64,000 bases of DNA from Candidatus Omnitrophota bacterium (lineage in GTDB: Bacteria; Omnitrophota; Gorgyraeia; Duberdicusellales; 4484-171), in the NCBI GenBank assembly GCA_028713415.1, contig JAQTOI010000002.1, positions 16,689-80,688 on the forward strand, in the 5' to 3' direction. The notes beneath the pieces were generated by a model. That model was given only the letters and a program-made list of their open reading frames with translations. It did not search any database and had not been told where the DNA came from. The position numbers and the translations under genes are program-made. This document shows, piece after piece, positions 11,912-64,000 of the stretch (position 1 is its first letter; the number at the start of each line of letters is the position of its first letter).

Positions 11912-13462
11912 ATGCAAATTCTTTACACATTTATAGGTGTGCTAATCGGCATATTTTGCGGCTGGTGGCTGGGAGAGATTTTTGAAAAAAATAAACTAAA
12001 AAAAGCACAGGAAGACGCAACAAAGATCTTAAAAGAGGCAAAGGCAAAAGCAGATGAAGTCTTGCGTAAAGCCGATTTAGACGGCAAAGAGCTGCTTTAT
12101 AAGTTGCGTGTTGAATTTGAAAAACAGAACGCTTCCAAAAAAGAAGAATTATTTCAACTAGAGAAAAGACTGACCCAGCGTGAAGAGAATTTAGAGAAGC
12201 GGCTTGATTTCATCGAGAACAAAGAGCAGGAATTAAACCGCAAAGAAGTGAGCTTAAAGAATCTTTCCGAGGAGTTGACCAAAAAAGACGAGGCGTTAAG
12301 GCAGCTAATTGAGGAGGAGAAAGAGAAACTAAAAAGAATCTCTTCGTTGACCCAAACTGAAGCGCGTGAACTGCTCTTAAAACGCTACGAAGAGGAGTTA
12401 CGCAGCGAAAAAGCAAAAATGCTTAAGCAAATGGAAGAAGAGATTAAAGAGGAAGCTGACAAAAAAGCAAAAGAAATAATAACGCTTTCTATACAACGCT
12501 GCGCCGTAGAGCATTCGACAGAGAGCACGGTGAGTGTTGTGCCTCTTCCAAATGATGAAATAAAAGGGAGGATAATCGGCCGCGAAGGAAGAAATATCCG
12601 GGCATTTGAGATGGCGACCGGAGTTGACCTGGTCATTGACGATACTCCGGAAGCGGTAAATCTTTCAAGCTTTGATCCTATCAGGCGCGAAATTGCCCGC
12701 CTCTCACTTGAAAAATTAGTCCAGGACGGCAGAATTCATCCTGCGCGCATCGAAGAAATAGTGGACAAAACCAAACAGGAATTTGATAAACAACTGCTTG
12801 AGGAAGGCAAAAATGCTGCTTTTGAAGTGGGGATTCATAACCTGCACCCTGAATTAATAAAATTACTGGGTAAGCTGCGTTACAGAACGAGTTTCGGCCA
12901 GAACGCCCTGCAACACTGCAAAGAAGTGGCGTTTATCATGAGCGTATTGGCATCTGAACTGGGGCTTGACTCGCGTATTGCAAAAAAAGTCGGGCTCCTG
13001 CATGATATAGGAAAAGCCGTTGACCATCAGGTGGAAGGTACTCACGCCCAAATCGGCGCTGAACTCTTAAGGAAGTATGGAGAGAACGAAGTGGTCATAA
13101 ACGCCGCGGAAGCGCACCATGAAGAGGCAGAGTTTAAATCCATTTATTCTCTGCTTACCCTGATTGCCGATGCAATTTCAGCTTCGCGGCCCGGCGCGCG
13201 CAGGGAAACGCTTGAAACATACATCAAGCGCCTTAATGAACTGGAAACAGTGGCAAACTCTTTTGACGGTGTTGACAAAAGTTACGCTATACAGGCTGGG
13301 CGCGAGATACGCGTTATTGTGCAACCCAACAAGGTTAAGGATGAGGAGATAACACTGCTTGCTCATGAGATTAAGAAAAAAATAGAGCAGGAGATGGATT
13401 ATCCCGGCAACATCAAAATCACTTTAATCAGAGAAACGCGGGCGGTTGATTACGCTAAATAA
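11912..13462 (+). CDS. rny: Ribonuclease Y
   Basis: N-terminal TM helix, a long coiled-coil, a KH domain ([15 protein letters not shown]), and an HD domain ([25 protein letters not shown]). Confidence 0.85.
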
Positions 13463-13615
13463 ACGCGAATCACCACTGATTCGGGACGAATTACCACGAA
13501 TAAAAAAGGTTGTATAATGCGACTTTGACGAGAATTATCGATAATGAGCGTTATAAAAAAAATTCACACTGATTTTAAAGATGATGTAAAATATATTAAC
13601 TTTTAATCTAGGGTT

Positions 13616-14413
13616 ATGAAAATATTATTTCTCGGCGATATTGTCGGCAAGCCGGCGCGTGTTTATCTTAAGGAGCTCCTGCCGTCTTTGCGCAGCACGC
13701 TTTCGCTTGATTTTATTATCGCCAACGGCGAAAATGCAGCTGGTGGCTCAAGCTTAACTCCTGATACAGCTCAAGAAATCTTTGAATCAGGAGTTGACGT
13801 AGTCACTACCGGCGACCATATTTTTAAGAAACAGGAAGCAAAAGAAGTACTGGCCACTATGGATGTAATCCGGCCGTTAAACTATGGAGAGCTCGCCTCT
13901 GGCCGTGGATATATAATTAAAGAATCGAAAGGGAAAAAAATAGGCGTGATTAATCTTCTGGGAAGAGTATTTATGCAGCCGGTGGACTGTCCCTTTAAAA
14001 CGATACGGGATACCTTGGAAAATATTAAAAAAGAGGCTAAGGTTATTATTGTAGACATGCACGCCGAAGCAACCAGCGAAAAATTAGCCATGGGTTATTT
14101 TTTAGCCGGCAAAGTAAGCGCTTGTTTGGGCACGCATACCCACATACCTACGGCGGATGAAAAGATCATTGATAACTACACTGCCTACATAACCGATCTT
14201 GGGATGACCGGAAGTTTTGACTCCGTCTTAGGCAGGGAAAAACATCAAATTATTGAGCGTTTTTTAACCAATATGCCGGTGCGCTTTAACCTTGCGCAGG
14301 GAGATGTGCGCGCGCAGGGCCTCATTATGGAAATCGATGACCAAACAGGAGGAGCGTTATCAATAGAGCGGGTGGAATACAGAAAAGACGATAAAACAGG
14401 AGGGGCGCTATGA
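13616..14413 (+). CDS. ymdB: YmdB-family metallophosphoesterase (2',3'-cyclic-nucleotide phosphodiesterase)
   Basis: MKILFLGDIVGKPAR...IANGENAAGG is the TIGR00282-type N-terminus. The conserved rny-ymdB pairing is present. Confidence 0.75.
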   Translation: MKILFLGDIVGKPARVYLKELLPSLRSTLSLDFIIANGENAAGGSSLTPDTAQEIFESGVDVVTTGDHIFKKQEAKEVLATMDVIRPLNYGELASGRGYIIKESKGKKIGVINLLGRVFMQPVDCPFKTIRDTLENIKKEAKVIIVDMHAEATSEKLAMGYFLAGKVSACLGTHTHIPTADEKIIDNYTAYITDLGMTGSFDSVLGREKHQIIERFLTNMPVRFNLAQGDVRAQGLIMEIDDQTGGALSIERVEYRKDDKTGGAL

Positions 14414-17228: not shown

Positions 17229-17260
17229 AGCTGATGACTGAGAGCTGACGGCTGAGAGCT
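17229..17260. repeat. Word-repeat inverted repeat, right arm (AGCTGATGACTGAGAGCTGACGGCTGAGAGCT)
   Basis: See the left arm at 16841-16873. Confidence 0.6.
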
Positions 17261-18313
17261 ATGAATAATAAAATATTACTATCAGGCAACGAAGCTATGG
17301 GCGAAGCCGCTATACGTGCCGGCTGCCGCTTCTATGCCGGCTACCCCATAACGCCACAAAACGAGCTAACCGCATACATGGCAAAAAGAATGCATCAGGA
17401 AAAAAGGATTTTTATCCAGGCGGAAAGCGAATTGGCGGCGATTAATATGGTTTTTGGCGCATCTTCCACGGGGGCCAGGGCAATGACCTCTTCTTCAAGC
17501 CCGGGAATTTCTTTAAAACAAGAAGGTATTTCATATATGGCCGGAACACAATTGCCTGCGGTTATAATTAATGTGATGCGCGGAGGGCCGGGATTAGGGA
17601 ATATCTCTTCAAGCCAGAGTGATTACTTCCAGTCAACACGCGGAGGCGGACATGGAGATTACTTTACGCCCACACTTGCACCCGCAAGCGCTCAAGAAGC
17701 TGCAGAGCTTACGATGCTCTCGTTTGATATGGCGGATTATTACAGGACGCCCGTATTAATCTTAGCTGATGCGATTATCGGGCAGATGATGGAACCATTA
17801 ATCCTGCCGCAGAAAAGCACCTTTACAAAAAAACTCGCGGCAAAAAGCTGGGCTTTAACTGGAGCGGACAAGCGGGCTCCCAACATCGTGCGCTCACTGT
17901 TTTTAGGGGAAGGGATGCTCCAGGCGCACAACGAAATGTTGCGTAAAAAATGGGAAACTATAAAAAATAACGAACAGCGCCATGAGGCCTATAAAACAGA
18001 AGATGCCAGATATCTGATTATCGCCTACGGTTCACAGGCGCGCATAGCAATTGATGTAATCGATTCTTTAAGAAAACAAAATATAAAAGCCGGGCTATTT
18101 CGCCCGGTGAGCCTCTGGCCCTATCCTGAAAAAGCATTGCGGCAAATCAGCAAAAAAATAAAAAAGGTTTTTGTCGTTGAGCAATCACTGGGCCAGATGA
18201 TAGAGGATGTGCGTTTGAGTTTGCCGGGCGAAGAAATACATTTTTTTGGAAAAGCCGGAGGAGGAATCCCGACGGTTGAGGAAATTATAAAATTTGTAAA
18301 AAGAAATTACTAA
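17261..18313 (+). CDS. 2-oxoacid:ferredoxin oxidoreductase alpha subunit (KorA/VorB-type)
   Basis: 350 aa. The N-terminus MNNKILLSGNEAMGEAAIRAGCRFYAGYPITPQNEL is typical of KOR/POR alpha subunits. Confidence 0.8.
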   Translation: MNNKILLSGNEAMGEAAIRAGCRFYAGYPITPQNELTAYMAKRMHQEKRIFIQAESELAAINMVFGASSTGARAMTSSSSPGISLKQEGISYMAGTQLPAVIINVMRGGPGLGNISSSQSDYFQSTRGGGHGDYFTPTLAPASAQEAAELTMLSFDMADYYRTPVLILADAIIGQMMEPLILPQKSTFTKKLAAKSWALTGADKRAPNIVRSLFLGEGMLQAHNEMLRKKWETIKNNEQRHEAYKTEDARYLIIAYGSQARIAIDVIDSLRKQNIKAGLFRPVSLWPYPEKALRQISKKIKKVFVVEQSLGQMIEDVRLSLPGEEIHFFGKAGGGIPTVEEIIKFVKRNY

Positions 18314-19231: not shown

Positions 19232-19302
19232 CGCAAAGAGCAGAGCGCAAAGCGTTAAAATTTTTCATACGCTATGCGCTATGCGCCACGCGCTTAGCGA
19301 AT

Positions 19303-30136: not shown

Positions 30137-31345
30137 ATGCATAAAATTAAAAGGAAAAGCTTCAGTTTACTTGAATTAATCATTGTTTTAGTGGTGGTAG
30201 GGATCTTGGCTGCAACGGCACTTCTTATATATAACGGCACCATAGAATATGCTAAAAGAAATGAAGCAATTCATAATGCGGCTCTTATCAGAGAAGCGGA
30301 ATTTGCTCAAAAAACCCAAAACGGAACCTTCATAGCAGCTGGTAATGCCGAAGAAGTTAACAATCTTTTATCCCTCACTATTGTTCCCAAAGATTATGAA
30401 TATAAAGTGGTTGGAGTAAGCGATGACGATTTTACTATTTTAGCCACAAAAATTGATACTGATGAAATAGTCCTGGCTTTAAATAAAGATGGGGTGCTTC
30501 AGGTAACAGACTCTGGCCAGGGCGGCGACACAGGCGGCGGCACTGGCGGTTCAGGCTCCGATAGTGGTGAGGAGGGCGGTGGTGGTGGCTCTGGCGGAGG
30601 GGGCGGCGGAGGCTCTGGCGGAGGCTCTGGCGGTGGTGACAGCGGTGGCGGCACTGGCGGTGGCGGTGGCGACACTGGCGGTGGGGGCGGCGGCTCTGGT
30701 GGCGGCGGAGGCTCTGGCGGCGGCGATGACGGAGGCGGAGATGACGGAGGCTCTGGCGGTGGGGGCGGCGGTTTTGGTTCTGTTTCTCACTCTGGAGGCG
30801 GTTGGTCCAATATCCTCGCTAGAGGCGGAGAGGCTGGGACAATAGATGATGGCTTACAAAGCGCTTTAAGCCTTCTTGAAAGTTCTACTTCTGCACTATA
30901 TGTTCCAGAATTAATAGAAGATAACCACATTAGCGTGCTGTATCAAACTGCTCCGTCTTATATCGGGGCGTGGTGGATGAGCAGTACAAATACAATATAC
31001 GTTAATACAGACCAGCAGGGCAACCCTACTGCGGCAATCGCAGCCTTAATCGCTCACGAGGCAACGCATGCTGATTATGATTATCACCAGGAATATTGGA
31101 TTAATACCACCATAGAGAGGCATCCGGAGCTAACAAGAGAGCAGCTTAGCGTACCTGATAATTCCGTTAACCAGGAATATGATTGTTTTTGTAATCAGAT
31201 GGCAGCGTGGCAAGAATTGAAACAAACCGCAACAGATGTCAATAATGATGCTTGGTTAGGCATATATAATCAAGGTGAAGATTATATGAAGTCGACCATA
31301 AAAACCCAGTATGCTTCTATCGGAATAATATTACCCAATTATTAG
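30137..31345 (+). CDS. Type IV pilin or pseudopilin-like protein fused to a C-terminal HExxH (DUF4157-like) putative metallopeptidase domain through a Gly/Ser/Asp-rich linker
   Basis: 402 aa. The N-terminus KRKS/FSLLELIIVLVVVGILAA is a prepilin cleavage/methylation motif with E at +5 and Ser instead of Gly at -1. Residues about 125-225 are more than 70% Gly/Ser/Asp. The C-terminal domain is ...NTIYVNTDQQGNPTAAIAALIAHEATHADYDYHQEYW...EYDCFCNQMAAWQEL. Confidence 0.6.
   Translation: MHKIKRKSFSLLELIIVLVVVGILAATALLIYNGTIEYAKRNEAIHNAALIREAEFAQKTQNGTFIAAGNAEEVNNLLSLTIVPKDYEYKVVGVSDDDFTILATKIDTDEIVLALNKDGVLQVTDSGQGGDTGGGTGGSGSDSGEEGGGGGSGGGGGGGSGGGSGGGDSGGGTGGGGGDTGGGGGGSGGGGGSGGGDDGGGDDGGSGGGGGGFGSVSHSGGGWSNILARGGEAGTIDDGLQSALSLLESSTSALYVPELIEDNHISVLYQTAPSYIGAWWMSSTNTIYVNTDQQGNPTAAIAALIAHEATHADYDYHQEYWINTTIERHPELTREQLSVPDNSVNQEYDCFCNQMAAWQELKQTATDVNNDAWLGIYNQGEDYMKSTIKTQYASIGIILPNY
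30525..30790 (+). repeat. Low-complexity coding repeat (GGC/GGT/TCT units encoding a poly-Gly/Ser linker)
   Basis: Reiterated ggcggtggc, tctggcggaggc and gatgacggaggc units. The antisense alanine-rich track ORFs here are artefacts of this repeat. Confidence 0.7.
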
Positions 31346-31943: not shown

Positions 31944-32153
31944 GTCGCATATTTAAGCTAAGTCTGCACCAAAACCTCACTCCTTCAGGGGTGGGGTTTT
32001 AAAGTTTCTGGATCAAAGCAATAAAAAATCGAAGTTTTGCAGGTAATTTATACGTGGTAATTTTCTTAAGCCGCCTTGAAGGTGAGAAATAAAGGAGGTT
32101 AAATAAACACCAAAATAAAAGTTTTAATTAGCCTTTTTTTCCTTCTCGTTTCA

Positions 32154-32663
32154 TTGAATACTATTGCTCAAGCAGAAATAGGCAATTTTCAAGGCATAGA
32201 GATAGTCGGCAGCCACGAATTCGTATTGCATGTAGGAAAAGCATTGGGGCTTCTTAACAAAAATGCCTTTTTTGCTTTTAATACCGTTAAAGAGTACGTG
32301 GGCAGGATACAGGAGTCGCCTCGTAGCGGAATGAACGTATACATTAATCCGCCGACATTCGAATTAAGCGCCAAAAGCGCATTTTACTCTCTTACCTGGT
32401 GCGCGGGGATCATTGCTCATGACGCCTACCATTCACAGCAATATTTTTCTTATCAGAAAATTCATGGAGATCCGGTACCTGCTGGTGTCTGGACAGGAAA
32501 AGATGCTGAGATAGAATGCCTCAATTTCCAAAAAGAAGCGATGCGCGCTATAGGCGCTCCGGATAAAGAGATAGACTATGTGGCTTCCGTAGAGCCAACA
32601 TATTATGATGTCAATAAAGATGGCCGATACGATCAAGAAGATTACCTCTTGCGGGACTGGTAA
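32154..32663 (+). CDS. Secreted protein with an HxxxH (HExxH-like, DUF4157-like) domain, paralog of the pilin-fused C-terminal domain
   Basis: ...NVYINPPTFELSAKSAFYSLTWCAGIIAHDAYHSQQYF...EIECLNFQKEAMRAIG aligns by eye with the pilin-fusion region TIYVNTD...ALIAHEATHADYDYHQEYW...EYDCFCNQMAAWQEL. The true start is probably upstream (the in-frame KIKVLISLFFLLVSLNTIAQA signal peptide has no ATG), so the 5' end is uncertain. Confidence 0.5.
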   Translation: MNTIAQAEIGNFQGIEIVGSHEFVLHVGKALGLLNKNAFFAFNTVKEYVGRIQESPRSGMNVYINPPTFELSAKSAFYSLTWCAGIIAHDAYHSQQYFSYQKIHGDPVPAGVWTGKDAEIECLNFQKEAMRAIGAPDKEIDYVASVEPTYYDVNKDGRYDQEDYLLRDW

Positions 32664-39465: not shown

Positions 39466-39529
39466 GAAAGCTGGACTAAGAATAACAATAATAGCTCGTG
39501 AGCTCATCAGCTCATGAGCTCGCGAGCTA

Positions 39530-41449
39530 ATGATTACCCTTAATAACCTATCCAAAAGCTACGGCACAAAGATTCTTTTTAAGGACGTTTCTCTTTCTAT
39601 AAACCGCGGAGAGAAAATAGGGCTCATCGGCCCTAACGGCGCAGGTAAATCAACTCTTTTCTCCCTCATCTTGGGTGAAAGCGAACCAAATTCTGGCCAT
39701 ATCCACACCTATAAAAACATTCGTATAGGTTATCTGCCACAGGAATCGCACTTTGCTTCAGGAAAAAGTGTTCTTGCGGAATTGCTCGAAGGTGACAAAA
39801 CAATAATGGACTTAAAGCAGGAAAAGGAACGCTTAGAGGCCAAAAACGAAACCGCCACAAAGCGTTATGGAGACATAATACACCAACTAGAAATATTGGG
39901 CTATATGAGCCTTGAGCATACCGCAAAAAAGATACTTGCCGGCTTAGGGTTTAAACAAACAGACTTTGCGCGGCCGGTGCAAGATTTAAGCGGCGGATGG
40001 CAGATGCGCGTTCTCCTGAGTAAGCTTTTGACTTACGAATATGACATCCTGTTGTTGGATGAACCCACCAACCACCTTGACTTAAATGCTGCGATTTGGT
40101 TTAAAGACTACCTGGCTTCCTTCAAAGGGACATTTATCATAATTTCTCACGATAGAGATTTCCTGGATGAAGTAACAGCTCACACGCTGGTTCTGGAGAA
40201 TGGCGAGCTTGTAAAGATACATGGAAATTATGAGCAGTATTTAACGATACGCGGGGAACGCACAACGCACCTGACCAAACAATTCAAGGAACAGGAAAAA
40301 AAGATAAACCAATTACAGGAATTCATCGACCGTTTCCACGCGCAACCGAACAAAGCTTCACAAGTGCGCGCCAAGCGCAAAATGCTTGAGCAGATGGAGC
40401 CGATTTTAATCCCGCCTGACATACGTGAAAGCATCCGCACCTTTCGCTTTCCTTTGACCGAATCAAGCGGGCAGAGAATAATAACGCTTAGTAAAATATC
40501 TAAATCCTACGGGAACATAAACGTTTATAAAGATTTTGATTTCGAAATCACCAAAGGCGAGAAAGCGGTGCTTGCAGGAGAAAATGGTGCAGGTAAATCC
40601 ACTCTTTTAAAAATCCTGGCAGGCGTGGTAAATATTGACGCAGGAGAACGCATTTTAGGGCATAATGTAAAAACAGGATATTTTTCGCAAACCCGCATGG
40701 ACGTGTTAAGCGCCGACAATACCGTGCTTGGTGAGGCGCACTCTGCGGCGCAAAAGTATATGTCCGAAGAAACCGTCCGCACTATTTTAGGGGCGTTTCT
40801 GTTTAGCGGAAATGACTCTGATAAGAAAGTAAGCGTGCTTTCGGGGGGAGAAAAAAGCCGGCTTATACTGGCTAAACTCCTCATTAACCCTCCAAATTTT
40901 CTGCTGCTGGATGAACCCACCACGCATCTTGACGTGGATGCCGTAGATGCCCTGATTAAGGCGCTTGGGGAATACGAGGGAACGCTAGTTTTTATCAGCC
41001 ACGATATCCATTTTGTCCGTTCTCTTGCCAATGTAGTCTTTGAGGTAAAAAGCGGGCGAGTGATAAAGTACCCGGGGAATTTTGATTATTACCTCGAAAA
41101 AAAAGCAAAAGGAGAAATAGCCGGCTCAAAGCCGCATGTCTCAAAAGGAAAATGGCACGCAACCTACCAGGCACTCGAGAAACAATCAAAACAAAAAGCA
41201 GACGCTAGCTACGAGGAAAAACAGAAATCTTATAACGCTTTCTTATCTGCCCAGATAAAACAATTAAGAAAAGAAAAAGAAGAGCTCCAGGCGGAGCGTT
41301 ATGTCAAAGAACGCATCATCGTAAACAAATACAGCCATCACAGCAACGAAACAAAAAAACAATATGCGCAGCGTATCCATGATATTGATGCGCGGATTTG
41401 CGAAATTGATAATCAAATAAAGTCCCTTAAGACCAAGTTTTTAAATTAG
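39530..41449 (+). CDS. ABC-F family ATPase (tandem ABC domains, no TMD; EttA/Uup/YheS-like)
   Basis: 639 aa with two Walker A motifs (GPNGAGKST, GENGAGKST), two LSGG signatures, and a coiled-coil C-terminus. Confidence 0.85.
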   Translation: MITLNNLSKSYGTKILFKDVSLSINRGEKIGLIGPNGAGKSTLFSLILGESEPNSGHIHTYKNIRIGYLPQESHFASGKSVLAELLEGDKTIMDLKQEKERLEAKNETATKRYGDIIHQLEILGYMSLEHTAKKILAGLGFKQTDFARPVQDLSGGWQMRVLLSKLLTYEYDILLLDEPTNHLDLNAAIWFKDYLASFKGTFIIISHDRDFLDEVTAHTLVLENGELVKIHGNYEQYLTIRGERTTHLTKQFKEQEKKINQLQEFIDRFHAQPNKASQVRAKRKMLEQMEPILIPPDIRESIRTFRFPLTESSGQRIITLSKISKSYGNINVYKDFDFEITKGEKAVLAGENGAGKSTLLKILAGVVNIDAGERILGHNVKTGYFSQTRMDVLSADNTVLGEAHSAAQKYMSEETVRTILGAFLFSGNDSDKKVSVLSGGEKSRLILAKLLINPPNFLLLDEPTTHLDVDAVDALIKALGEYEGTLVFISHDIHFVRSLANVVFEVKSGRVIKYPGNFDYYLEKKAKGEIAGSKPHVSKGKWHATYQALEKQSKQKADASYEEKQKSYNAFLSAQIKQLRKEKEELQAERYVKERIIVNKYSHHSNETKKQYAQRIHDIDARICEIDNQIKSLKTKFLN

Positions 41450-48223: not shown

Positions 48224-48271
48224 AACTTTTTAAGCCTGAGACCTGAAGCCTGTAGCTTGTAGCCTGAACTT

Positions 48272-49318: not shown

Positions 49319-49419
49319 CGCAGATAATCGCTGATTACACACAGATGGTCGCAGATTATTTATCTGCGTAAATCTGCGTTAGATGTGCGGTAATCTGCGT
49401 TTGAAGAAATAATATTATT
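49319..49419. repeat. Intergenic word-repeat imperfect palindrome (CGCAGAT/ATCTGCG) ending in TAATCTGCGTTTGA before proA
   Basis: cgcagataatcgctgattacacacagatggtcgcagattatttatctgcgtaaatctgcgttagatgtgcggtaatctgcgtttga. Confidence 0.55.
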
Positions 49420-57723: not shown

Positions 57724-59436
57724 ATGCCGACAAAAGAAAATCTTCTGGTAGGCAGGATTCTAGTAGAAGAAAACATCATAACTTCCGAACAGCTTGAGGC
57801 GGGGCTCAAAGAGCAAAAGCGCACCGGAGACTTTATTTGCACTACACTGGTAAAACTGGGGTTTGCGCCGCAAGAGAAAGTATTCAGCGTTCTATCTCGC
57901 CAATTAAATATCCCTTATGTAAAATTGAAGGACAAAGAAATCCCTCAAAACGTTATCGAAAAAGTATCCGCTAAGTTCGCAAGCCACTATAAAATCGTCC
58001 CCATAGAGTATCGCGACAATACCCTGGTAATAGCCATGGCAAACCCGCTGGACACCCGCACGCTTGACGATATTAATCTATTATTGGGCATTGAAGTTAA
58101 GGCAGTGCTCTCCAGCGAAGTCGAGATAAACGAAGAACTTCGTAAATATTACGGAGTAGGCGCGGATACTCTGGAACAAATTATGGCGCAGAAAGAATTT
58201 TCCGGGGAAATACAGATGCAGGCTGAAAAAACCGAGGACATAGAAACGCTGGCGGAAGACGCCTCTATTATCAAATTTGTCAACCAGATACTTTCAGAAG
58301 CGGTTAAAGACAGGGCGACTGATATACACATTGAACCTTTCCAGGATGAACTACGCGTGCGCTTTCGTATCGATGGCGTGCTTTATAAAATAAATATACC
58401 CGGGACAATAAGGTATTTCCATCCCGCAATAATCTCGCGAATTAAAGTTATGGCGCAGATGAATATCGCTGAGCACCGCATGCCACAGGATGGACGCATC
58501 AAAATCAAAGTTGCCGAAAGAGAACTTGACCTGCGAATTTCTACACTACCTACGGCATTTGGCGAAGGCGTGCATATGCGCATATTGAGCTCGCATAGCT
58601 TTCTGGAATTAGAAAAACTGGGATTAGCGCAGTGCGATCTTGCTATTATTGAAAATGTCATTAAAAAACCTCACGGCATTATCTTTGTTACCGGGCCCAC
58701 GGGAAGCGGGAAATCCACAACGCTATACGCCTCCCTGGCAAAAATAAATTCCATGGAAACAAAAATAATTACCATAGAGGACCCCATAGAATATCAGTTA
58801 AAAGGCATAAACCAGATGCAGGTTATCCCAAAAATAGGGTTTGATTTTGCCATAGGACTGCGCCACATATTAAGGCACGACCCTGATGTCATAATGGTGG
58901 GTGAGGTCAGGGATTATGAAACCGCTGAAATTGCAATACGTTCTGCACTCACAGGACACTTGGTGTTTTCCACGCTGCATACCAACGACGCTGCCGGGGC
59001 GATAACACGCCTTGTTGATATGGGCGTTGAGCCTTTTTTAGTTTCATCAAGCCTTGAGTGCCTGATTGCGCAGCGGCTTGTGCGGTTAATCTGCCCGAAA
59101 TGTAAAACGGCAATAAGCGGGCACAAAAAAGCTGACATCTTAAAACAGGCTCATGAGGAAAAAATCGAAACTTCCGAAATTGAGTTGTTTGAAGGTAAAG
59201 GGTGCCAGGAATGCCGCTTTACAGGCTACCGCGGCCGGACAGGCATATACGAGATACTGCGTATCAGCGAACCTATAAGAGAAATGATTGTTACCAAGTC
59301 AACCAGCCAGCAAATAAAGCAAAAAGCTATTGCCGAAGGAATGCGCACCCTGCGCCGAGACGGCCTCTGCAAAGTATTAAGGGGGTTGACTACTTTAAGC
59401 GAAGTGATGCGCGTTAGCCAGCAGGAAACAACTTAG
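57724..59436 (+). CDS. Type II secretion/type IV pilus assembly ATPase (GspE/PilB family)
   Basis: 570 aa with an N-terminal T2SE_Nter domain, Walker A GPTGSGKSTTLYA, Asp and His boxes, and a tetracysteine motif (CPKC...CQEC). Confidence 0.8.
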   Translation: MPTKENLLVGRILVEENIITSEQLEAGLKEQKRTGDFICTTLVKLGFAPQEKVFSVLSRQLNIPYVKLKDKEIPQNVIEKVSAKFASHYKIVPIEYRDNTLVIAMANPLDTRTLDDINLLLGIEVKAVLSSEVEINEELRKYYGVGADTLEQIMAQKEFSGEIQMQAEKTEDIETLAEDASIIKFVNQILSEAVKDRATDIHIEPFQDELRVRFRIDGVLYKINIPGTIRYFHPAIISRIKVMAQMNIAEHRMPQDGRIKIKVAERELDLRISTLPTAFGEGVHMRILSSHSFLELEKLGLAQCDLAIIENVIKKPHGIIFVTGPTGSGKSTTLYASLAKINSMETKIITIEDPIEYQLKGINQMQVIPKIGFDFAIGLRHILRHDPDVIMVGEVRDYETAEIAIRSALTGHLVFSTLHTNDAAGAITRLVDMGVEPFLVSSSLECLIAQRLVRLICPKCKTAISGHKKADILKQAHEEKIETSEIELFEGKGCQECRFTGYRGRTGIYEILRISEPIREMIVTKSTSQQIKQKAIAEGMRTLRRDGLCKVLRGLTTLSEVMRVSQQETT

Positions 59437-59474
59437 AAACAAAACCCTGCGGATTTCCCTTAATCTCTAAATTA

Positions 59475-59891
59475 ATGTTACATTTAACTTCCGGCCGCTT
59501 GCGCTTAAGCGTCTTATTTCTCACCAGCATATTAACTTTCTGCTTCTTTTCTCCGCTTGTTTGCCGGCCCACAGAAAACCTTCAGGAATCCGTACAAAGC
59601 AAAATCTGGGATTTTGGCCGGGTAAAAGAAACTAAAATTCTAAAGCACAATTTTATTTTTAAAAATGAAACAGGAAAAATTTTACATATCGTCAATGTCA
59701 GCACCTCCTGCGGCTGCATGGTTTCTAAAGTAAATAAAACAACTCTTCTGCCTCGAGAGACCGCCGTCATCGCGGTTGAGTTTAACCCTGCTAGTTACAG
59801 CGGCAAGATCACTCAATACGTTTACCTTCATACCGATAATATTAAAAACTTACTGATTGAGTTTGCTTTAAGGGCTGAAGTGATGAGTTGA
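59475..59891 (+). CDS. DUF1573 domain protein (secreted)
   Basis: 138 aa with an N-terminal hydrophobic segment. The conserved DUF1573 motifs FxFxNxG (FIFKNETG) and SCGC (VSTSCGCM) are present. Confidence 0.6.
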   Translation: MLHLTSGRLRLSVLFLTSILTFCFFSPLVCRPTENLQESVQSKIWDFGRVKETKILKHNFIFKNETGKILHIVNVSTSCGCMVSKVNKTTLLPRETAVIAVEFNPASYSGKITQYVYLHTDNIKNLLIEFALRAEVMS

Positions 59892-59940
59892 TCTTTACTT
59901 TAAGCCGAAAAAAGAGCAAATTTAAGCAAATATTTTACTA

Positions 59941-59969
59941 TTGACAATAATTTAAGCTTCTCCTACAAT
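59941..59969 (+). promoter_or_regulatory. Consensus sigma70-type promoter (TTGACA-17 bp-TACAAT) upstream of the RHS toxin gene
   Basis: TTGACA at 59941-59946 and TACAAT at 59964-59969. The strong RBS AAAGAGGAGG at 60001-60010 is downstream of the predicted TSS. This implies the real start codon is near 60016 (non-ATG) and not the track's GTG at 59974. Confidence 0.5.
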
Positions 59970-59973
59970 TGAA

Positions 59974-62900
59974 GTGCTTTTTCCTCCGGTAAACCAGTTA
60001 AAAAGAGGAGGTTATATTAAAAACATTCCCTGTTTGCGGCTAATTTGCGCGCTTCTTTGCGCAACGCTTGCCTTTAACCCCCTACTCAGCTATGCCCAGC
60101 CAGAAAACTACGCAGCCATTAGTCTTTTCAAATCAGCTCAAGAAGACCAAAAGAACCTGAAATGGCAGGATAGCCTTGCCAAATTTGGGCAGGTTATTGC
60201 TTCTTCTCCAAAAAGTCCTGAGGCACAAAAAGCCTTTATTGAAATAGGTAAATATTATAAATACAACCGGGACTGGCAGAAGGCTCTCCAACAATACGAC
60301 CGGGCGATTAATATTTCCTCCGCTTCCCGCGACGCCCAGGACGCCAAAACCGCAAAAGCCGCTGTCTATTATTTCCGTCAGGATTTCCCGACCGCTTTAG
60401 GAATGTTTCAGGAAGTCTTAGCTCAAACAAAAGACTGGGACCAGATAAACTACTGCTCTTACTGGATTAAGGAAGTAAAACGCAAAATGGATTTTTCCCG
60501 GGCCGATTCATTTGCCTGCGGGCCGCAGGCGCTCAAAATTGTTTTTAATATCCTGGGCTTGCCCGCGAATAATAAAGAAATAGCCGGATTATTCCAAACT
60601 GAAGATAAACAGATTTCGCTTGCCCAATTAACCAAAGCGGCTAAACAAAAAGGGTTAAAGCCGAAAGTCGCCAAACTCAAATCCGCTGATCTTGCAAATG
60701 TAAACACTCCCTTTATCGCCTTAGTGAATCCGGAACATTATGTGGTAGTTACTGATACTGCGGATAACCAAGTGCGCTATATCGACCCCAGCTACCAAAG
60801 CCAAACGCAATCGGCAAGTTTAGAAGAGTTTAATAAAAATTTTAAAGGCTACGCCCTGATCTTCATTGAGGATCAGACCCGCTTGGCAAAAGTAAAAATT
60901 GTTTCGCCTGAAAATAAAGAGTTAAATGAACTAAAAGGCGGTATCTGCTGGTGCTGCCCGCCTTCAGGCTTAGGCGACTGCCCCAATGCTGAAAAAGACG
61001 GAAAAAAGCCCTGTTCGCCGGGTATGCCTTCATGGATGGTCAATACCGTCAATCTTAATCTCATCATCCAAGATATTGATTTTCAATATACCTCGCGCGG
61101 TATGCCTGTTGAGTTCATTCGTACCTACAACGCTGACGATCCCAGAGATGGCGTTTTCGGCCACTCCTGGACTTTTAATTACAATGTCTATTTGGTAGAA
61201 AATCCGGATAAAAGCATAGATATTAGAAGGGGCGACGGCAGGATAGACCACTTCTTCTGGAACGGCAGCCGCTATCAGGCACCTGAAGCTATTTACGATA
61301 CTCTCACTAAAAACGGGGATAACACTTACACTTTAAAGCTAAAGGCTGATAAAACCAGCTATAACTTTAATGCGCAGGGGAGGCTTATCAATATCAAGGA
61401 CAGAAATAATAATACCATCGCCTTTTCTTACGATGCTGAAGGCAAACTTACGCAAATAACCGACCCCAATGGCAAAAATACCGCACTTGCTTACGGGACA
61501 AACAAAAAAGTCTCAAGGCTTACCCTGGCTGACGGCCGCTTTGCCGAGTTTTTCTATGACAGCAATAATAACCTCATCCAGACTAAAGACATGGTGCAGG
61601 CCACCGCCGCATTTACCTATGACAGCGCAAGCTACATAACTGCCATCACCACTCCTCATCAAGGAAAAACCACCATCGAATACGGCACAACCAGCTATGA
61701 AGGCTATTATATTAAATCCATTACCGACGCTTTAGGCAATAAGCGCAGCTACTCTACTTACCAAACCCACACCCAAATACAGATTCTGGACAGTAAAAAC
61801 AACTCTACGCTCTATAAAAATAACTATGACGGTTATACTACCTCAATTACCTCCCCCAGCGGTAACGCAGTAAATTTTGAATATGATACTTTTGGAAACC
61901 GCACTAAAATCATAGATACCTTGGGTAACGCTACCGCCTTAACCTATGACGCAAACGGCGGCATTACCTCAATAACCGACGCCTTAAATAACAAGGTTAT
62001 TCTTGATTATGATGCCAATGATAACCTGATAAAAGCAACCGATCCTAAAGGCAACATCATCAATTTCACCTACGATACAAAAAGTAACCTGCTTTCCTTA
62101 AAAGACCCGGACAGCCAGACTACATCTTTTACTTATAATTCTTTCGGCCAACTGCAAAGATTAACCGACGCAAAAAATGGGATCACTGATTTTGCTTACG
62201 ATGCAAGCGGTAACCTGATTAAAATGACCAACCCCTTAGGTAAGATCAGTAATTACCTCTGTGATACTCTAGGCAGACTAACCAAGCTCACCGATCCCAA
62301 AGGCCAGGCGTTTACCTATATTTATGACGGGGTTGATCATTTGACTAAAGTAACCTATCCGGATTCAGGCACAATAACCTATACTTATAACTGCTGCAAC
62401 CTTAATCAGGTGGAGGATAAAAACGGCACGTTGAAATTTACTTACGATGCTCTTGGCAGGCTGAAATCTTTTACCAATTATGATAACAAGATAATTTCCT
62501 ACGATTATGATGGCGAAGACAATTTGATCAGCCTTACTTATCCTGACACAAAAAAAGTAAATTACCAATACGATAAAGACAATCGCCTCACAAAAGTTAT
62601 TGACTGGCTCAATAATATTACCACCTATAGTTATGATTCGCGGGGAAATTTAGCCTTTAGCCAGTCGCCGGCCTTGCTCAGCGTATATAAATACGATGCG
62701 CTTAACCGCTTGACTAAACTTCTTAATTATAACTCTAATACCATGACGATCAGCTCTGGTTTTGAATTTACTTTAAATGAGCTCTCTAACCGCGCTAAAA
62801 TCAAACGCTACCTTCCTTTGAGCGCACCCACTTTTGCTCTTTCGGGAAGCGCCTACTCCTACAACTCCGACAACCAGCTTACTTCTGCCACCGGAAAAAC

Positions 62901-63807
62901 ATTTACTTATGATGATAACGGCAACTTAATCGGCATAGCGCAAAGCGCAGGCAATATCGGCTTTAGCTATGATTATGACAACCAACTTACACAATACACG
63001 CAGGGTACAACAACTCTAACTTACCAGTATGACGCACTTGGTAACCGCATCAAGAAAACCTCTGGCTCTACAGTAACCAAGTATATCGTTGACCCCAACA
63101 GAGGATTACCCTCTGTGCTCTGTGAAACCAACTCCTCCGGCGCTATCACTGCTTACTATGTCTATGGTTTAGGGTTAATCTCCAAGATAGAGGGAAGCAA
63201 TGCCTATTACTACCAATACGATGGGATAGGTTCAACGGCAGCGATAACCGATAAGAACGGGGTGATAAAGAACAAATACGCCTACGATGACTTTGGAAAC
63301 TTGGCTACGAATTCTACGGAAACAATCGCAAATCCATTCAAATATATCGGGCGGCATGGTGTTGTGACTGATACAAATGATCTTTTTTATATGCGCGCAC
63401 GTTATTACATGCCAAGTATGGGAAGATTTGTAAATAAGGATCCAATTGGATTGGCAGGTGGATTGAATTTATATGGGTATGTCAGCAATAACGCTATAAA
63501 CATAGTTGACCCAAACGGTCTTTTCGATACAAGCACAGTTCCCATTCAGATTATCAATTCCGATTTAGTCATGCCCCCCATGTTCAAATCGTCACTACCT
63601 CTTTACTCATCTTCTTATTATTCTTCGTCGAAAGGTTACAAAAGGATAAGATGCGATTTAATTGATATACCCACCATTAAAGGAGATAAAAAAATTTGTA
63701 AATACAGGTGTGTGGATGAACATGGGAACTTCATCTCAATCTGGTATCATATCATATTAGCGGATTCTAATTGTGATTCGGTATTTTTTAAAATAGTGCC
63801 AAAATAG
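59974..63807 (+). CDS. RHS/YD-repeat polymorphic toxin with N-terminal peptidase-C39-like domain and novel C-terminal domain
   Basis: 1277 aa with a signal peptide, a TPR-like region, a Cys/His papain-like block (CGPQALKIVFNILGL...NPEHYVVVTD), about 20 YD repeats, an RHS core (YYQYDGIGSTAAITD...RARYYMPSMGRFVNKDPIGLAGGLNLYGYVSNNAINIVDPNGL), and then an unrelated 95-aa C-terminal tail. The 5' end is uncertain (see promoter feature). Confidence 0.8.
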   Translation: MLFPPVNQLKRGGYIKNIPCLRLICALLCATLAFNPLLSYAQPENYAAISLFKSAQEDQKNLKWQDSLAKFGQVIASSPKSPEAQKAFIEIGKYYKYNRDWQKALQQYDRAINISSASRDAQDAKTAKAAVYYFRQDFPTALGMFQEVLAQTKDWDQINYCSYWIKEVKRKMDFSRADSFACGPQALKIVFNILGLPANNKEIAGLFQTEDKQISLAQLTKAAKQKGLKPKVAKLKSADLANVNTPFIALVNPEHYVVVTDTADNQVRYIDPSYQSQTQSASLEEFNKNFKGYALIFIEDQTRLAKVKIVSPENKELNELKGGICWCCPPSGLGDCPNAEKDGKKPCSPGMPSWMVNTVNLNLIIQDIDFQYTSRGMPVEFIRTYNADDPRDGVFGHSWTFNYNVYLVENPDKSIDIRRGDGRIDHFFWNGSRYQAPEAIYDTLTKNGDNTYTLKLKADKTSYNFNAQGRLINIKDRNNNTIAFSYDAEGKLTQITDPNGKNTALAYGTNKKVSRLTLADGRFAEFFYDSNNNLIQTKDMVQATAAFTYDSASYITAITTPHQGKTTIEYGTTSYEGYYIKSITDALGNKRSYSTYQTHTQIQILDSKNNSTLYKNNYDGYTTSITSPSGNAVNFEYDTFGNRTKIIDTLGNATALTYDANGGITSITDALNNKVILDYDANDNLIKATDPKGNIINFTYDTKSNLLSLKDPDSQTTSFTYNSFGQLQRLTDAKNGITDFAYDASGNLIKMTNPLGKISNYLCDTLGRLTKLTDPKGQAFTYIYDGVDHLTKVTYPDSGTITYTYNCCNLNQVEDKNGTLKFTYDALGRLKSFTNYDNKIISYDYDGEDNLISLTYPDTKKVNYQYDKDNRLTKVIDWLNNITTYSYDSRGNLAFSQSPALLSVYKYDALNRLTKLLNYNSNTMTISSGFEFTLNELSNRAKIKRYLPLSAPTFALSGSAYSYNSDNQLTSATGKTFTYDDNGNLIGIAQSAGNIGFSYDYDNQLTQYTQGTTTLTYQYDALGNRIKKTSGSTVTKYIVDPNRGLPSVLCETNSSGAITAYYVYGLGLISKIEGSNAYYYQYDGIGSTAAITDKNGVIKNKYAYDDFGNLATNSTETIANPFKYIGRHGVVTDTNDLFYMRARYYMPSMGRFVNKDPIGLAGGLNLYGYVSNNAINIVDPNGLFDTSTVPIQIINSDLVMPPMFKSSLPLYSSSYYSSSKGYKRIRCDLIDIPTIKGDKKICKYRCVDEHGNFISIWYHIILADSNCDSVFFKIVPK

Positions 63808-63817
63808 ACGAATAAGT

Positions 63818-64000
63818 ATGCAACCATCTAACACTCATAAGGTAGAAAAATTATTATACAATCGAACAGCTAAAACATTGGTTACCCAAGTAAGGCTGGA
63901 ATCTTCAAGGCTCTATATTTCCAGAATTTATTCACGGCATATAAAAGAAAAACAATATCGTATGATTGGATATTCTTTTAGGCCAGATTGTTCTTATGAG
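63818..64000 (+). CDS. Candidate immunity protein for the RHS C-terminal toxin domain (partial, runs off window)
   Basis: The ATG lies 11 nt after the RHS stop. The translation MQPSNTHKVEKLLYNRTAKTLVTQVRLESSRLYISRIYSRHIKEKQYRMIGYSFRP... continues off the window. The call rests on position only. Confidence 0.3.
   Translation, partial: MQPSNTHKVEKLLYNRTAKTLVTQVRLESSRLYISRIYSRHIKEKQYRMIGYSFRPDCSYE

Follow-up and report, generated by a model that had tools for sequence, protein, structure and literature searches.

A stand-alone Rhs/YD polymorphic toxin gene of an Omnitrophota bacterium with a predicted AUU start codon and a C39 peptidase domain next to a double-glycine site

At the 3' end of a 64,000-nucleotide (nt) stretch of DNA from a Candidatus Omnitrophota bacterium (GenBank assembly GCA_028713415.1, contig JAQTOI010000002.1, positions 16,689 to 80,688 of the forward strand; hereafter the window, meaning this whole stretch) lies a single open frame (59974-63807, plus strand; 1277 residues counted from a GTG codon) that, judged by its domains and motifs, encodes a bona fide Rhs/YD polymorphic toxin with a 94-residue tail beyond its cleavage motif. 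Residues are numbered from an ATT codon at 60016, the initiation codon that we propose, unless GTG-based numbering is stated; counting from GTG 59974 adds 14. The promoter, the gene, the parts of the encoded protein and the open reading frame (ORF) that follows it are arranged as follows, in window coordinates:

59941-59946 and 59964-59969, plus strand: sigma-70-type promoter, TTGACA and TACAAT separated by 17 nt, matching 11 of 12 consensus positions
60005-60011, plus strand: Shine-Dalgarno (SD) sequence GAGGAGG
60016-60018, plus strand: proposed AUU initiation codon, in frame, 4 nt beyond GGAGG
60016-63807, plus strand: coding sequence of the Rhs polymorphic toxin, 1263 residues if AUU-initiated
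60016-60096, plus strand: predicted Sec signal peptide MKNIPCLRLICALLCATLAFNPLLSYA, followed by QP; residues 1-27, read from the sequence
60103-60495, plus strand: TPR-like helical region, residues ~30-160, based on weak Pfam TPR matches
60511-60867, plus strand: Peptidase C39 domain, residues 166-284 (180-298 in GTG numbering), Pfam PF03412, E=1.4e-20
60517-60519, 60736-60738 and 60784-60786, plus strand: catalytic triad Cys168, His241 and Asp257
60919-60942, plus strand: double-glycine site ELNELKGG, residues 302-309, with the predicted scissile bond between G309 and I310
60943-61038, plus strand: Cys-rich linker ICWCCPPSGLGDCPNAEKDGKKPCSPG with a conserved [IV]-C-x-C-C-P motif
61039-61254, plus strand: DUF6531 at the start of the Rhs core, residues 356-427 in GTG numbering, Pfam E=1.8e-12
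61255-63282, plus strand: YD/RHS-repeat shell (Pfam RHS_repeat, 14 stretches, E=3.6e-77; TIGR01643, 13 stretches)
63283-63522, plus strand: Rhs-associated core carrying the aspartyl autoprotease motif DPIGLAGGLNLYGYVSNNAINIVDPNGL, with a predicted cut after L1169
63523-63804, plus strand: C-terminal tail, presumed toxin, 94 residues
63818-64000, plus strand: putative immunity gene, first 61 codons visible, continuing past the end of the window

An earlier reading made from the letters of the window (the sequence-only reading) had described an Rhs toxin with a DPxGL-bearing core, and the Pfam and NCBIfam domains together with the autoprotease motif bear this out. In addition to the matches given above, NCBIfam recognises YD_repeat_2x in the protein, and TIGR03696 covers residues 1090-1169 (E=2e-21; 76.2 bits against a cut-off of 32.5), its last residue being the L of DPNGL. 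The pattern DP(I/L)GxxGGx5Yx8D(P/S)xG(L/W) has been described, together with its role, as the C-terminal autoprotease motif of Rhs proteins (PMC11461821), and regular-expression matching showed that DPIGLAGGLNLYGYVSNNAINIVDPNGL fits this published aspartyl-autoprotease consensus except for the final spacer, which comprises 9 residues instead of 8. At the opposite end of the protein, the predicted signal peptide has, by eye, a basic n-region, a 12-residue hydrophobic core and small residues at -3 and -1, and the junction at which A/S-x-A precedes Q is aligned in most orthologues. The TPR-like region that comes next gave weak matches to BamD-like and Tgl-like TPR models of NCBIfam and is all-helical in a low-confidence model.

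Relatives were collected by scanning species-representative genomes and metagenome contigs, which yielded 13 loci (L001-L013) at 37-68% identity over the N-terminal 420 residues; the closest named one belongs to a Candidatus Omnitrophota metagenome-assembled genome (MAG; 64% identity). A word-indexed search with the N-terminal 336 residues returned nothing, a surprising outcome beside the 13 relatives that came from scans at the DNA level. While the N-terminal region aligns at this level of identity, the eight sequenced tails all differ; a YGNYGGP...HD tail is common to L004 and L007. The tail of L011 resembles Tlde1/YkuD (E=1e-6, narrowly missing the Pfam cut-off), that of L009 is weakly phospholipase-A2 (PLA2)-like (E=0.0025), and those of L001, L006 and L010 contain hydrophobic or glycine-zipper segments. 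Variable tails with adjacent small ORFs are the textbook layout of polymorphic toxins and therefore mark the tails, and not the conserved N-terminal module, as the toxins. Orphan Rhs C-terminal fragments with alternative tails lie 3' of the main gene in L007 (4405-4587), L009 (14266-15593) and L011 (14880-16046); these cassettes carry a further small ORF, a small membrane ORF follows the one in L009, and such fragments provide material for tail swapping. An IS200-like Y1 transposase gene is found 0.6-2.2 kb 3' of the Rhs locus in two independent loci, L004 (14388-15056) and L009 (15951-16439), and the YD-repeat shell of L002 ('Planctomycetales') holds a Pro/Thr/Ser-rich insertion of ~250 residues (~12900-13800).

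Based on the layout of the 5' region and on the comparison of orthologues, translation of the Rhs gene very probably starts at AUU 60016. Because an in-frame TAA (59953) within the promoter spacer blocks any start further upstream, the canonical in-frame alternatives are limited to the annotated GTG 59974 and TTG 60034, either of which would reduce the ATT behind the SD to a coincidence. Against the AUU it can be said that the product of TTG 60034, MRLICALLCATLAFNPLLSYA, is still a plausible signal peptide, with 21 usable residues both in the window and in L001, where the TTG is one codon off the homologous position. However, the TTG is 22 nt past the SD, compared to an SD-to-start spacing of 4-10 nt in this genome, where GGAGG followed after 4 nt by ATG (AAAGAGGAGGT context) occurs in the window at 11912, 21500 and 38593, the last in the nearly identical context AAAGAGGAGGTATC-ATG. 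As for the GTG, the TTGACA-17-TACAAT promoter is the sole site scoring >9/12 within 59400-64000 and predicts a transcription start at ~59976, with a leader of ~40 nt to the AUU, so that GTG 59974 would lie outside the mRNA or at its extreme end, as the sequence-only reading had proposed when it named this promoter. A TTGACA or TTGACT -35 hexamer with a spacer of 17-18 nt also precedes the orthologues in L001, L003, L005/6, L008, L009 and L013.

The same reading had pointed to the ATT 4 nt after the ribosome binding site, with no ATG, GTG or TTG at suitable spacing, and the alignment of orthologues, which it had suggested as a check, sustains the proposal. An ATT or ATC codon lies 4-5 nt past the SD in six orthologous loci (five distinct sequences, L005 being identical to L006), with ATT in L001, L003 and L009 and ATC at the homologous position in L005/L006 and L008. 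In the protein alignment, these isoleucine start codons coincide with the methionine of L007 (MKK), L010 (MKR) and L013 (MNK). In L003, L008 and L009 there is no ATG, GTG or TTG from the upstream stop to the end of the signal peptide; the first canonical codon of L005/6 comes only deep inside the hydrophobic core; and L001 has an in-frame TAG 15 nt 5' of its ATT and no counterpart of GTG 59974. None of the orthologues examined has a conventional upstream start. At 60016 a near-cognate codon stands at normal SD spacing, with no usable canonical alternative and with conservation among orthologues, and we regard a conventional start at the GTG or the TTG as very unlikely.

AUU, AUC and AUA (collectively AUH) initiate at ~1-2% of AUG in E. 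coli, and the confirmed AUU starts are only infC and pcnB (bioRxiv 10.1101/063800). In a neighbour-joining tree, computed without support values, the AUH starts of the Rhs orthologues all fall in one core clade of 54-67% identity; the outgroups use ATG, as do L004 and L007, which are nested in the clade. The ATG users of the core clade (L004, L007 and L013) lack a strong SD and the ATT/ATC users all have one, and these two solutions for weak initiation appear interchangeable. Since one substitution would give ATG, the persistence of AUH across the clade suggests that the weak start is maintained; together with the missing strong SD of the ATG users it fits selection for low initiation.

A different explanation, which we consider rather unlikely, is that the AUU/AUC start does not serve to regulate the toxin and that start-codon selection is relaxed in this lineage. 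A second probable non-canonical start is present in the window at ATA 32103 (gene 32103-32663, plus strand), 4 nt past AAGGAGG and with an in-frame TAA directly 5' of it; initiation there yields a complete signal peptide, MNTKIKVLISLFFLLVSLNTIAQA, ahead of EIG, which the canonical, annotated TTG 32154 would remove, and the 186-residue product has no match in Pfam or NCBIfam. This gene speaks against toxin-specific control, as AUH starts may be a habit of the lineage. On the other side, the flanks of the related loci yielded no further convincing gene with an SD and an AUH codon, whereas the Rhs orthologue shows AUH in six of these loci, and AUH has persisted at 54-67% identity although ATG is a single step away. 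We also considered a hairpin that sequesters the SD by pairing it with CCUCC (59983-59987) and rejected it, the leader folding no better than shuffles (z = +0.8) and the element being missing in the orthologues.

For the N-terminal module, the sequence-only reading had left the choice between a C39-like and a transglutaminase-like domain; the former stands and the latter falls away. The PF03412 match, which begins at profile position 11, scores 73.9 bits against a cut-off of 22, and a profile built from 12 orthologues matches the solved structures of ComA (8hf6 and 3k8u, E ~1e-10), LahT150 (6mpz, 5e-10) and PCAT1 (4ry2, 1.5e-8). Cys168, His241 and Asp257 are invariant in the 12 orthologues and align with the triad of ComA. 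On these comparisons the nearest relatives of the domain are the double-glycine peptidases of ComA, LahT and PCAT1. No ABC transporter domain was found in the protein, the NCBIfam transporter models matching only its peptidase part and far below their cut-offs.

Some 20 residues past the C39 domain, all 12 orthologues that cover the region carry the motif E-[LVM]-x-x-[LIV]-[KR]-G-[GA], followed by [IVG]-C-x-C-C-P; in the window, ELNELKGG runs directly into ICWCCPP (residues 302-316). Within the latter motif, C172 and C174 (numbering of alignment A2) are invariant, and C175 and P176 are conserved at ≥90%. Double-glycine leader signals are defined by Glu at -8, Leu at -7, a hydrophobic residue at -4 and a terminal GG, GA or GS (PMC6363468), and the ELNELKGG-type motif fits this signal of the C39 family at -8, -7, -4, -2 and -1, while the Leu at -12 is missing and usually replaced by Pro. 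The strict double-glycine pattern arose in 13/20000 shuffles of the protein and occurs just two more times in 85,000 residues of open frames. The sequence-only reading had overlooked this conserved site adjoining the C39 domain, as well as the second non-canonical start at 32103. No orthologue has a Glu-dependent N-terminal autocleavage motif of the type VI Rhs effectors, whether of the Tse15 type or PVxxxxGE, a known Rhs N-terminal autocleavage motif (PMC11461821). Because the conserved motif is the recognition signal of this very peptidase family, we lean towards the view that the TPR-C39 module detaches itself from the Rhs cocoon by cutting the predicted bond between G309 and I310. A single-sequence AlphaFold (AF2) model of the N-terminal 348 residues had a predicted local distance difference test (pLDDT) score of 42 and was too poor for use.

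Two features of the domain weigh against self-removal. The oxyanion Gln, six residues before the Cys in ComA, is not conserved in the Rhs orthologues, which have R, G, T or similar there, and the end of the C39 domain is separated from the Gly-Gly bond by only ~22 residues, for which reason cleavage in cis is perhaps sterically difficult. It is conceivable, if doubtful, that the domain is not self-processing and instead acts as a second effector, as Tox-PLC39 and StbD do, or as a peptide-binding or anchoring module, with xxKGG-CWCC serving a structural role. C39 has been recorded as a toxin domain in Rhs and other polymorphic toxins, and in the 2012 census of polymorphic toxins it figures as a C-terminal toxin domain only (Tox-PLC39; PMC3482391). 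The C39 domain of StbD-CT cleaves GyrB and ParE, and its redox-controlled self-cleavage in cis after Gly-Gly has been demonstrated (bioRxiv 10.64898/2026.05.07.723447). Inactive C39-like domains also exist, such as that of HlyB, which the 12-orthologue profile matches as well, albeit more weakly. However, HlyB lacks the catalytic Cys, unlike the orthologues with their intact triad; the domain is N-terminal and conserved here, whereas the tails are what varies and what is accompanied by small ORFs; the agreement of the adjoining motif with the protease signal in 12/12 orthologues is improbable by chance; and the C39 module is not accompanied by any immunity-like gene. In L012 (6927-7967) the orthologue ends just past the double-glycine site (…LRGGVCEC, then a stop), leaving a free-standing protein of signal peptide, TPR region and C39 domain; this is a pseudogene, the outcome of a frameshift or a form of the module that naturally stands alone.

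The tail had been described as an unclassified domain of 95 residues; its length is 94, and it has indeed no credible homologue or fold match, no known toxin family having been matched in Pfam, the PDB or the protein indexes. It comprises a disordered Ser/Pro/Tyr-rich linker of ~38 residues (63523-63636) and a beta domain of ~55 residues with four Cys (63637-63804), and a single-sequence AF2 model shows, after ~37 disordered residues, five strands at pLDDT ~80. A family search at E up to 10 gave no match, a word-indexed search of a 5.8-billion-protein index and a scan of viral contigs gave nothing, a sequence search of the PDB gave only E above 0.7, Foldseek of the model against the PDB gave nothing better than E=0.2, and a local tblastn search of all fetched loci with the tail and the downstream fragment as queries gave nothing. 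Exhaustive phmmer against 1.84 billion representatives returned two matches at E ~5e-6, which we rejected as homologues: in both of these tandem-repeat proteins, the score adds up over copies of a short DEGGNFIDV-like strand. The GC content is 42.8% in the core and ~9 points lower beyond it (tail, 34.4%; downstream fragment, 32.8%), as is usual for toxin-immunity cassettes that have been exchanged.

We presume that the tail, a small, basic beta domain with four Cys in this reading, is the toxin of the protein. Alternatively, it could be a non-toxin, either a remnant left by decay or truncation or a binding module without toxicity, with an unrelated ORF behind it, which we hold to be unlikely. 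Its folded part is small for an enzyme, the downstream ORF is incomplete in the window and anonymous, and, as neither tail nor ORF has homologues, toxicity and immunity are without support from co-occurrence, a point that weighs against the presumption. Set against this, the length of the tail is typical of the family (86-136 residues), its model is a compact and, for single-sequence prediction, confident beta domain, the low-GC cassette begins exactly at the cleavage motif, and the frame is intact. The Tlde1-like and PLA2-like tails and the membrane helices of sibling proteins, along with the Sec-dependent route, hint that the envelope of a neighbouring cell would be the most likely site of action.

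The sequence-only reading had also noted a small ORF in the immunity position, 11 nt after the toxin gene; the position is as described and recurs in the orthologues, and the spacing is 10 nt. ATG 63818 opens the only one of six frames that is open in 63808-64000, and in 6/7 complete orthologues a small ORF, usually multi-membrane-spanning, begins ≤~20 nt from the stop or overlaps it, whereas in L010 the first ORF of ≥40 residues begins 175 nt past the stop. The visible 61 residues have no homologue in the word-indexed search and no Pfam or NCBIfam family match. As the ORF is incomplete in the window and lacks homologues, it is from its position that we assign it a putative immunity function; that the visible part has no signal peptide or membrane helix makes it a poor fit to an envelope target. 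A frameshift from the toxin gene into the frame of the downstream ORF was rejected owing to a stop in that frame at 63758-63760.

The genes that we examined at 21.5-60 kb of the window are mostly chromosomal housekeeping and signalling genes, among them GlnRS/GluRS-type and Tyr tRNA synthetases, ribosomal protein S1, Obg, ProB, phosphoglucomutase, a PilZ protein and an MshE-type ATPase, and none of them is a type VI, Tc or ABC-exporter gene. Directly 5' of the Rhs gene, 59475-59891 (plus strand) encodes a secreted DUF1573/HYDIN-VesB-like Ig-domain protein with a TSCGC motif. We discarded it as a conserved partner, as it is found only in the window and in L001 (382-777, Omnitrophota MAG), the other loci having unrelated housekeeping neighbours. 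Farther upstream, 30137-31345 (plus strand) encodes a 402-residue protein whose N-terminus bears a pilin-type methylation motif and which contains long Gly-rich GGCGGx repeats (30521-30751); it sits 5' of two uncharacterised secreted proteins. Short tandem arrays with units of 7-10 nt occur at 17229-17264, 19270-19294, 39493-39533, 48232-48268 and 49362-49400; their units are all different (AGCTGAG, CGCTATG, AGCTCATG, AAGCCTG and ATCTGCGTAA), and the arrays are found at housekeeping genes without an SD, either overlapping the start codon or ≤~20 nt 5' of it.

Taken as a whole, the locus is best explained, and probably so, as a chromosomal stand-alone Rhs/YD polymorphic toxin locus with an AUU start, Sec export and self-processing by C39 and aspartyl proteases. 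Transcription would proceed from the near-consensus promoter, whose match to the consensus is observed, giving a leader of ~40 nt, and translation would begin at AUU 60016, behind a strong SD at the normal distance of 4 nt, as the comparison with orthologues supports. The weak AUH codon, policed by IF3 in E. coli, may keep the toxin low or dependent on growth state. The signal peptide would then export the 1263-residue precursor from the cytoplasm via Sec, and the TPR-C39 module may cut its own chain, in cis or between copies, at the ELxxLKGG motif, freeing an Rhs cocoon that would begin with ICWCCPP; this cut would stand in for the Glu-dependent N-terminal autocleavage of type VI Rhs effectors. 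By analogy with other Rhs proteins, the aspartyl autoprotease would cut past DPNGL and leave the 94-residue tail inside the cocoon, from which the tail may be delivered to a neighbouring cell to intoxicate it, probably at the envelope, with the ORF 10 nt downstream, by its position, protecting the producer.

A more far-reaching proposal, which we offer tentatively since all of its parts would have to hold jointly, is that a clade of Sec-exported Rhs toxins has exchanged Glu-dependent autocleavage for a captured C39 peptidase of the bacteriocin type, which cuts the double-glycine site of its own chain, maybe under redox gating by the CWCC motif as in StbD; that the AUU/AUC start has been selectively kept for low, IF3-sensitive output; and that the tail is the founder of a new family of small disulfide-rich beta toxins.

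The type VI Rhs effectors (TseI, RhsP, RhsA and Tse15) resemble the window protein in their YD-repeat cocoon, DPxG...DPxGL autoprotease motif, variable toxin, adjacent immunity gene (putative in the window) and removable N-terminal module (predicted in the window). Unlike them, it has no PAAR, VgrG-binding or clade domain in Pfam and no type VI genes among the neighbours described above, it carries a predicted Sec signal peptide, and the C39 domain with its double-glycine site takes the place of the x/PVxxxxGE and Tse15-type Glu motifs. WapA of B. subtilis is a Sec-dependent Rhs/YD toxin. With the Sec-dependent Rhs/YD toxins ('T2SS' class; Zhang et al., 2012) the window protein shares the signal peptide, an N-terminal accessory module, the RHS shell, the polymorphic toxin and an immunity gene (putative in the window), but its accessory module consists of a TPR region and an apparently active C39 domain, an architecture not listed in PMC3482391.

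The C39 domains of PCAT/AMS transporters (ComA, LahT and PCAT1) are its best sequence matches, with an aligned triad and a neighbouring motif that fits their substrate signal; in contrast to them, the domain is not fused to an ABC transporter, is predicted to be exported by Sec, lacks the conserved oxyanion Gln and has its presumed site in the same chain, C-terminal to the domain. StbD-CT, the C39 toxin carried by CdiA, likewise combines C39 with a polymorphic toxin and has a diglycine ~25 residues from the domain, and it offers a precedent for intramolecular cleavage and redox control; there, however, C39 is the C-terminal toxin and the GG lies upstream, whereas the C39 domain of the window protein is conserved, lies in the N-terminal part and apparently serves in processing. 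The start codon has parallels in the AUU-initiated infC and pcnB genes of E. coli and in the IF3-repressed GTC start of Streptomyces sigR, which are also non-canonical starts conserved in orthologues behind a good SD, except that the window gene encodes a toxin and not a factor of translation or RNA metabolism, and that its codon alternates between AUU and AUC.

Among bacterial weapons, Rhs toxins form a major class, and how their N-terminal module is removed and the cocoon armed are active questions. To our knowledge, these steps have so far been studied only in type VI and Tc systems. We conclude that the locus belongs to a well-known toxin class, of which it is an architecturally new variant, and is not a new kind of system; it has two moderately surprising features, the conserved AUH start and the C39 domain with its site in cis. 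Having a leader peptidase and the site that it recognises on a single chain makes for a simple, testable model of processing and, if the model is true, would be the second case, StbD being the first, in which a C39 domain of a polymorphic toxin processes its own chain. An AUU/AUC start kept across deeply diverged orthologues is rare in bacteria and provides a clean natural case in which to ask whether weak start codons throttle dangerous proteins. Gene callers limited to ATG, GTG and TTG mis-start or truncate such genes, together with at least one other secreted protein in the window. The orphan tail, finally, adds one more toxin candidate without known relatives.

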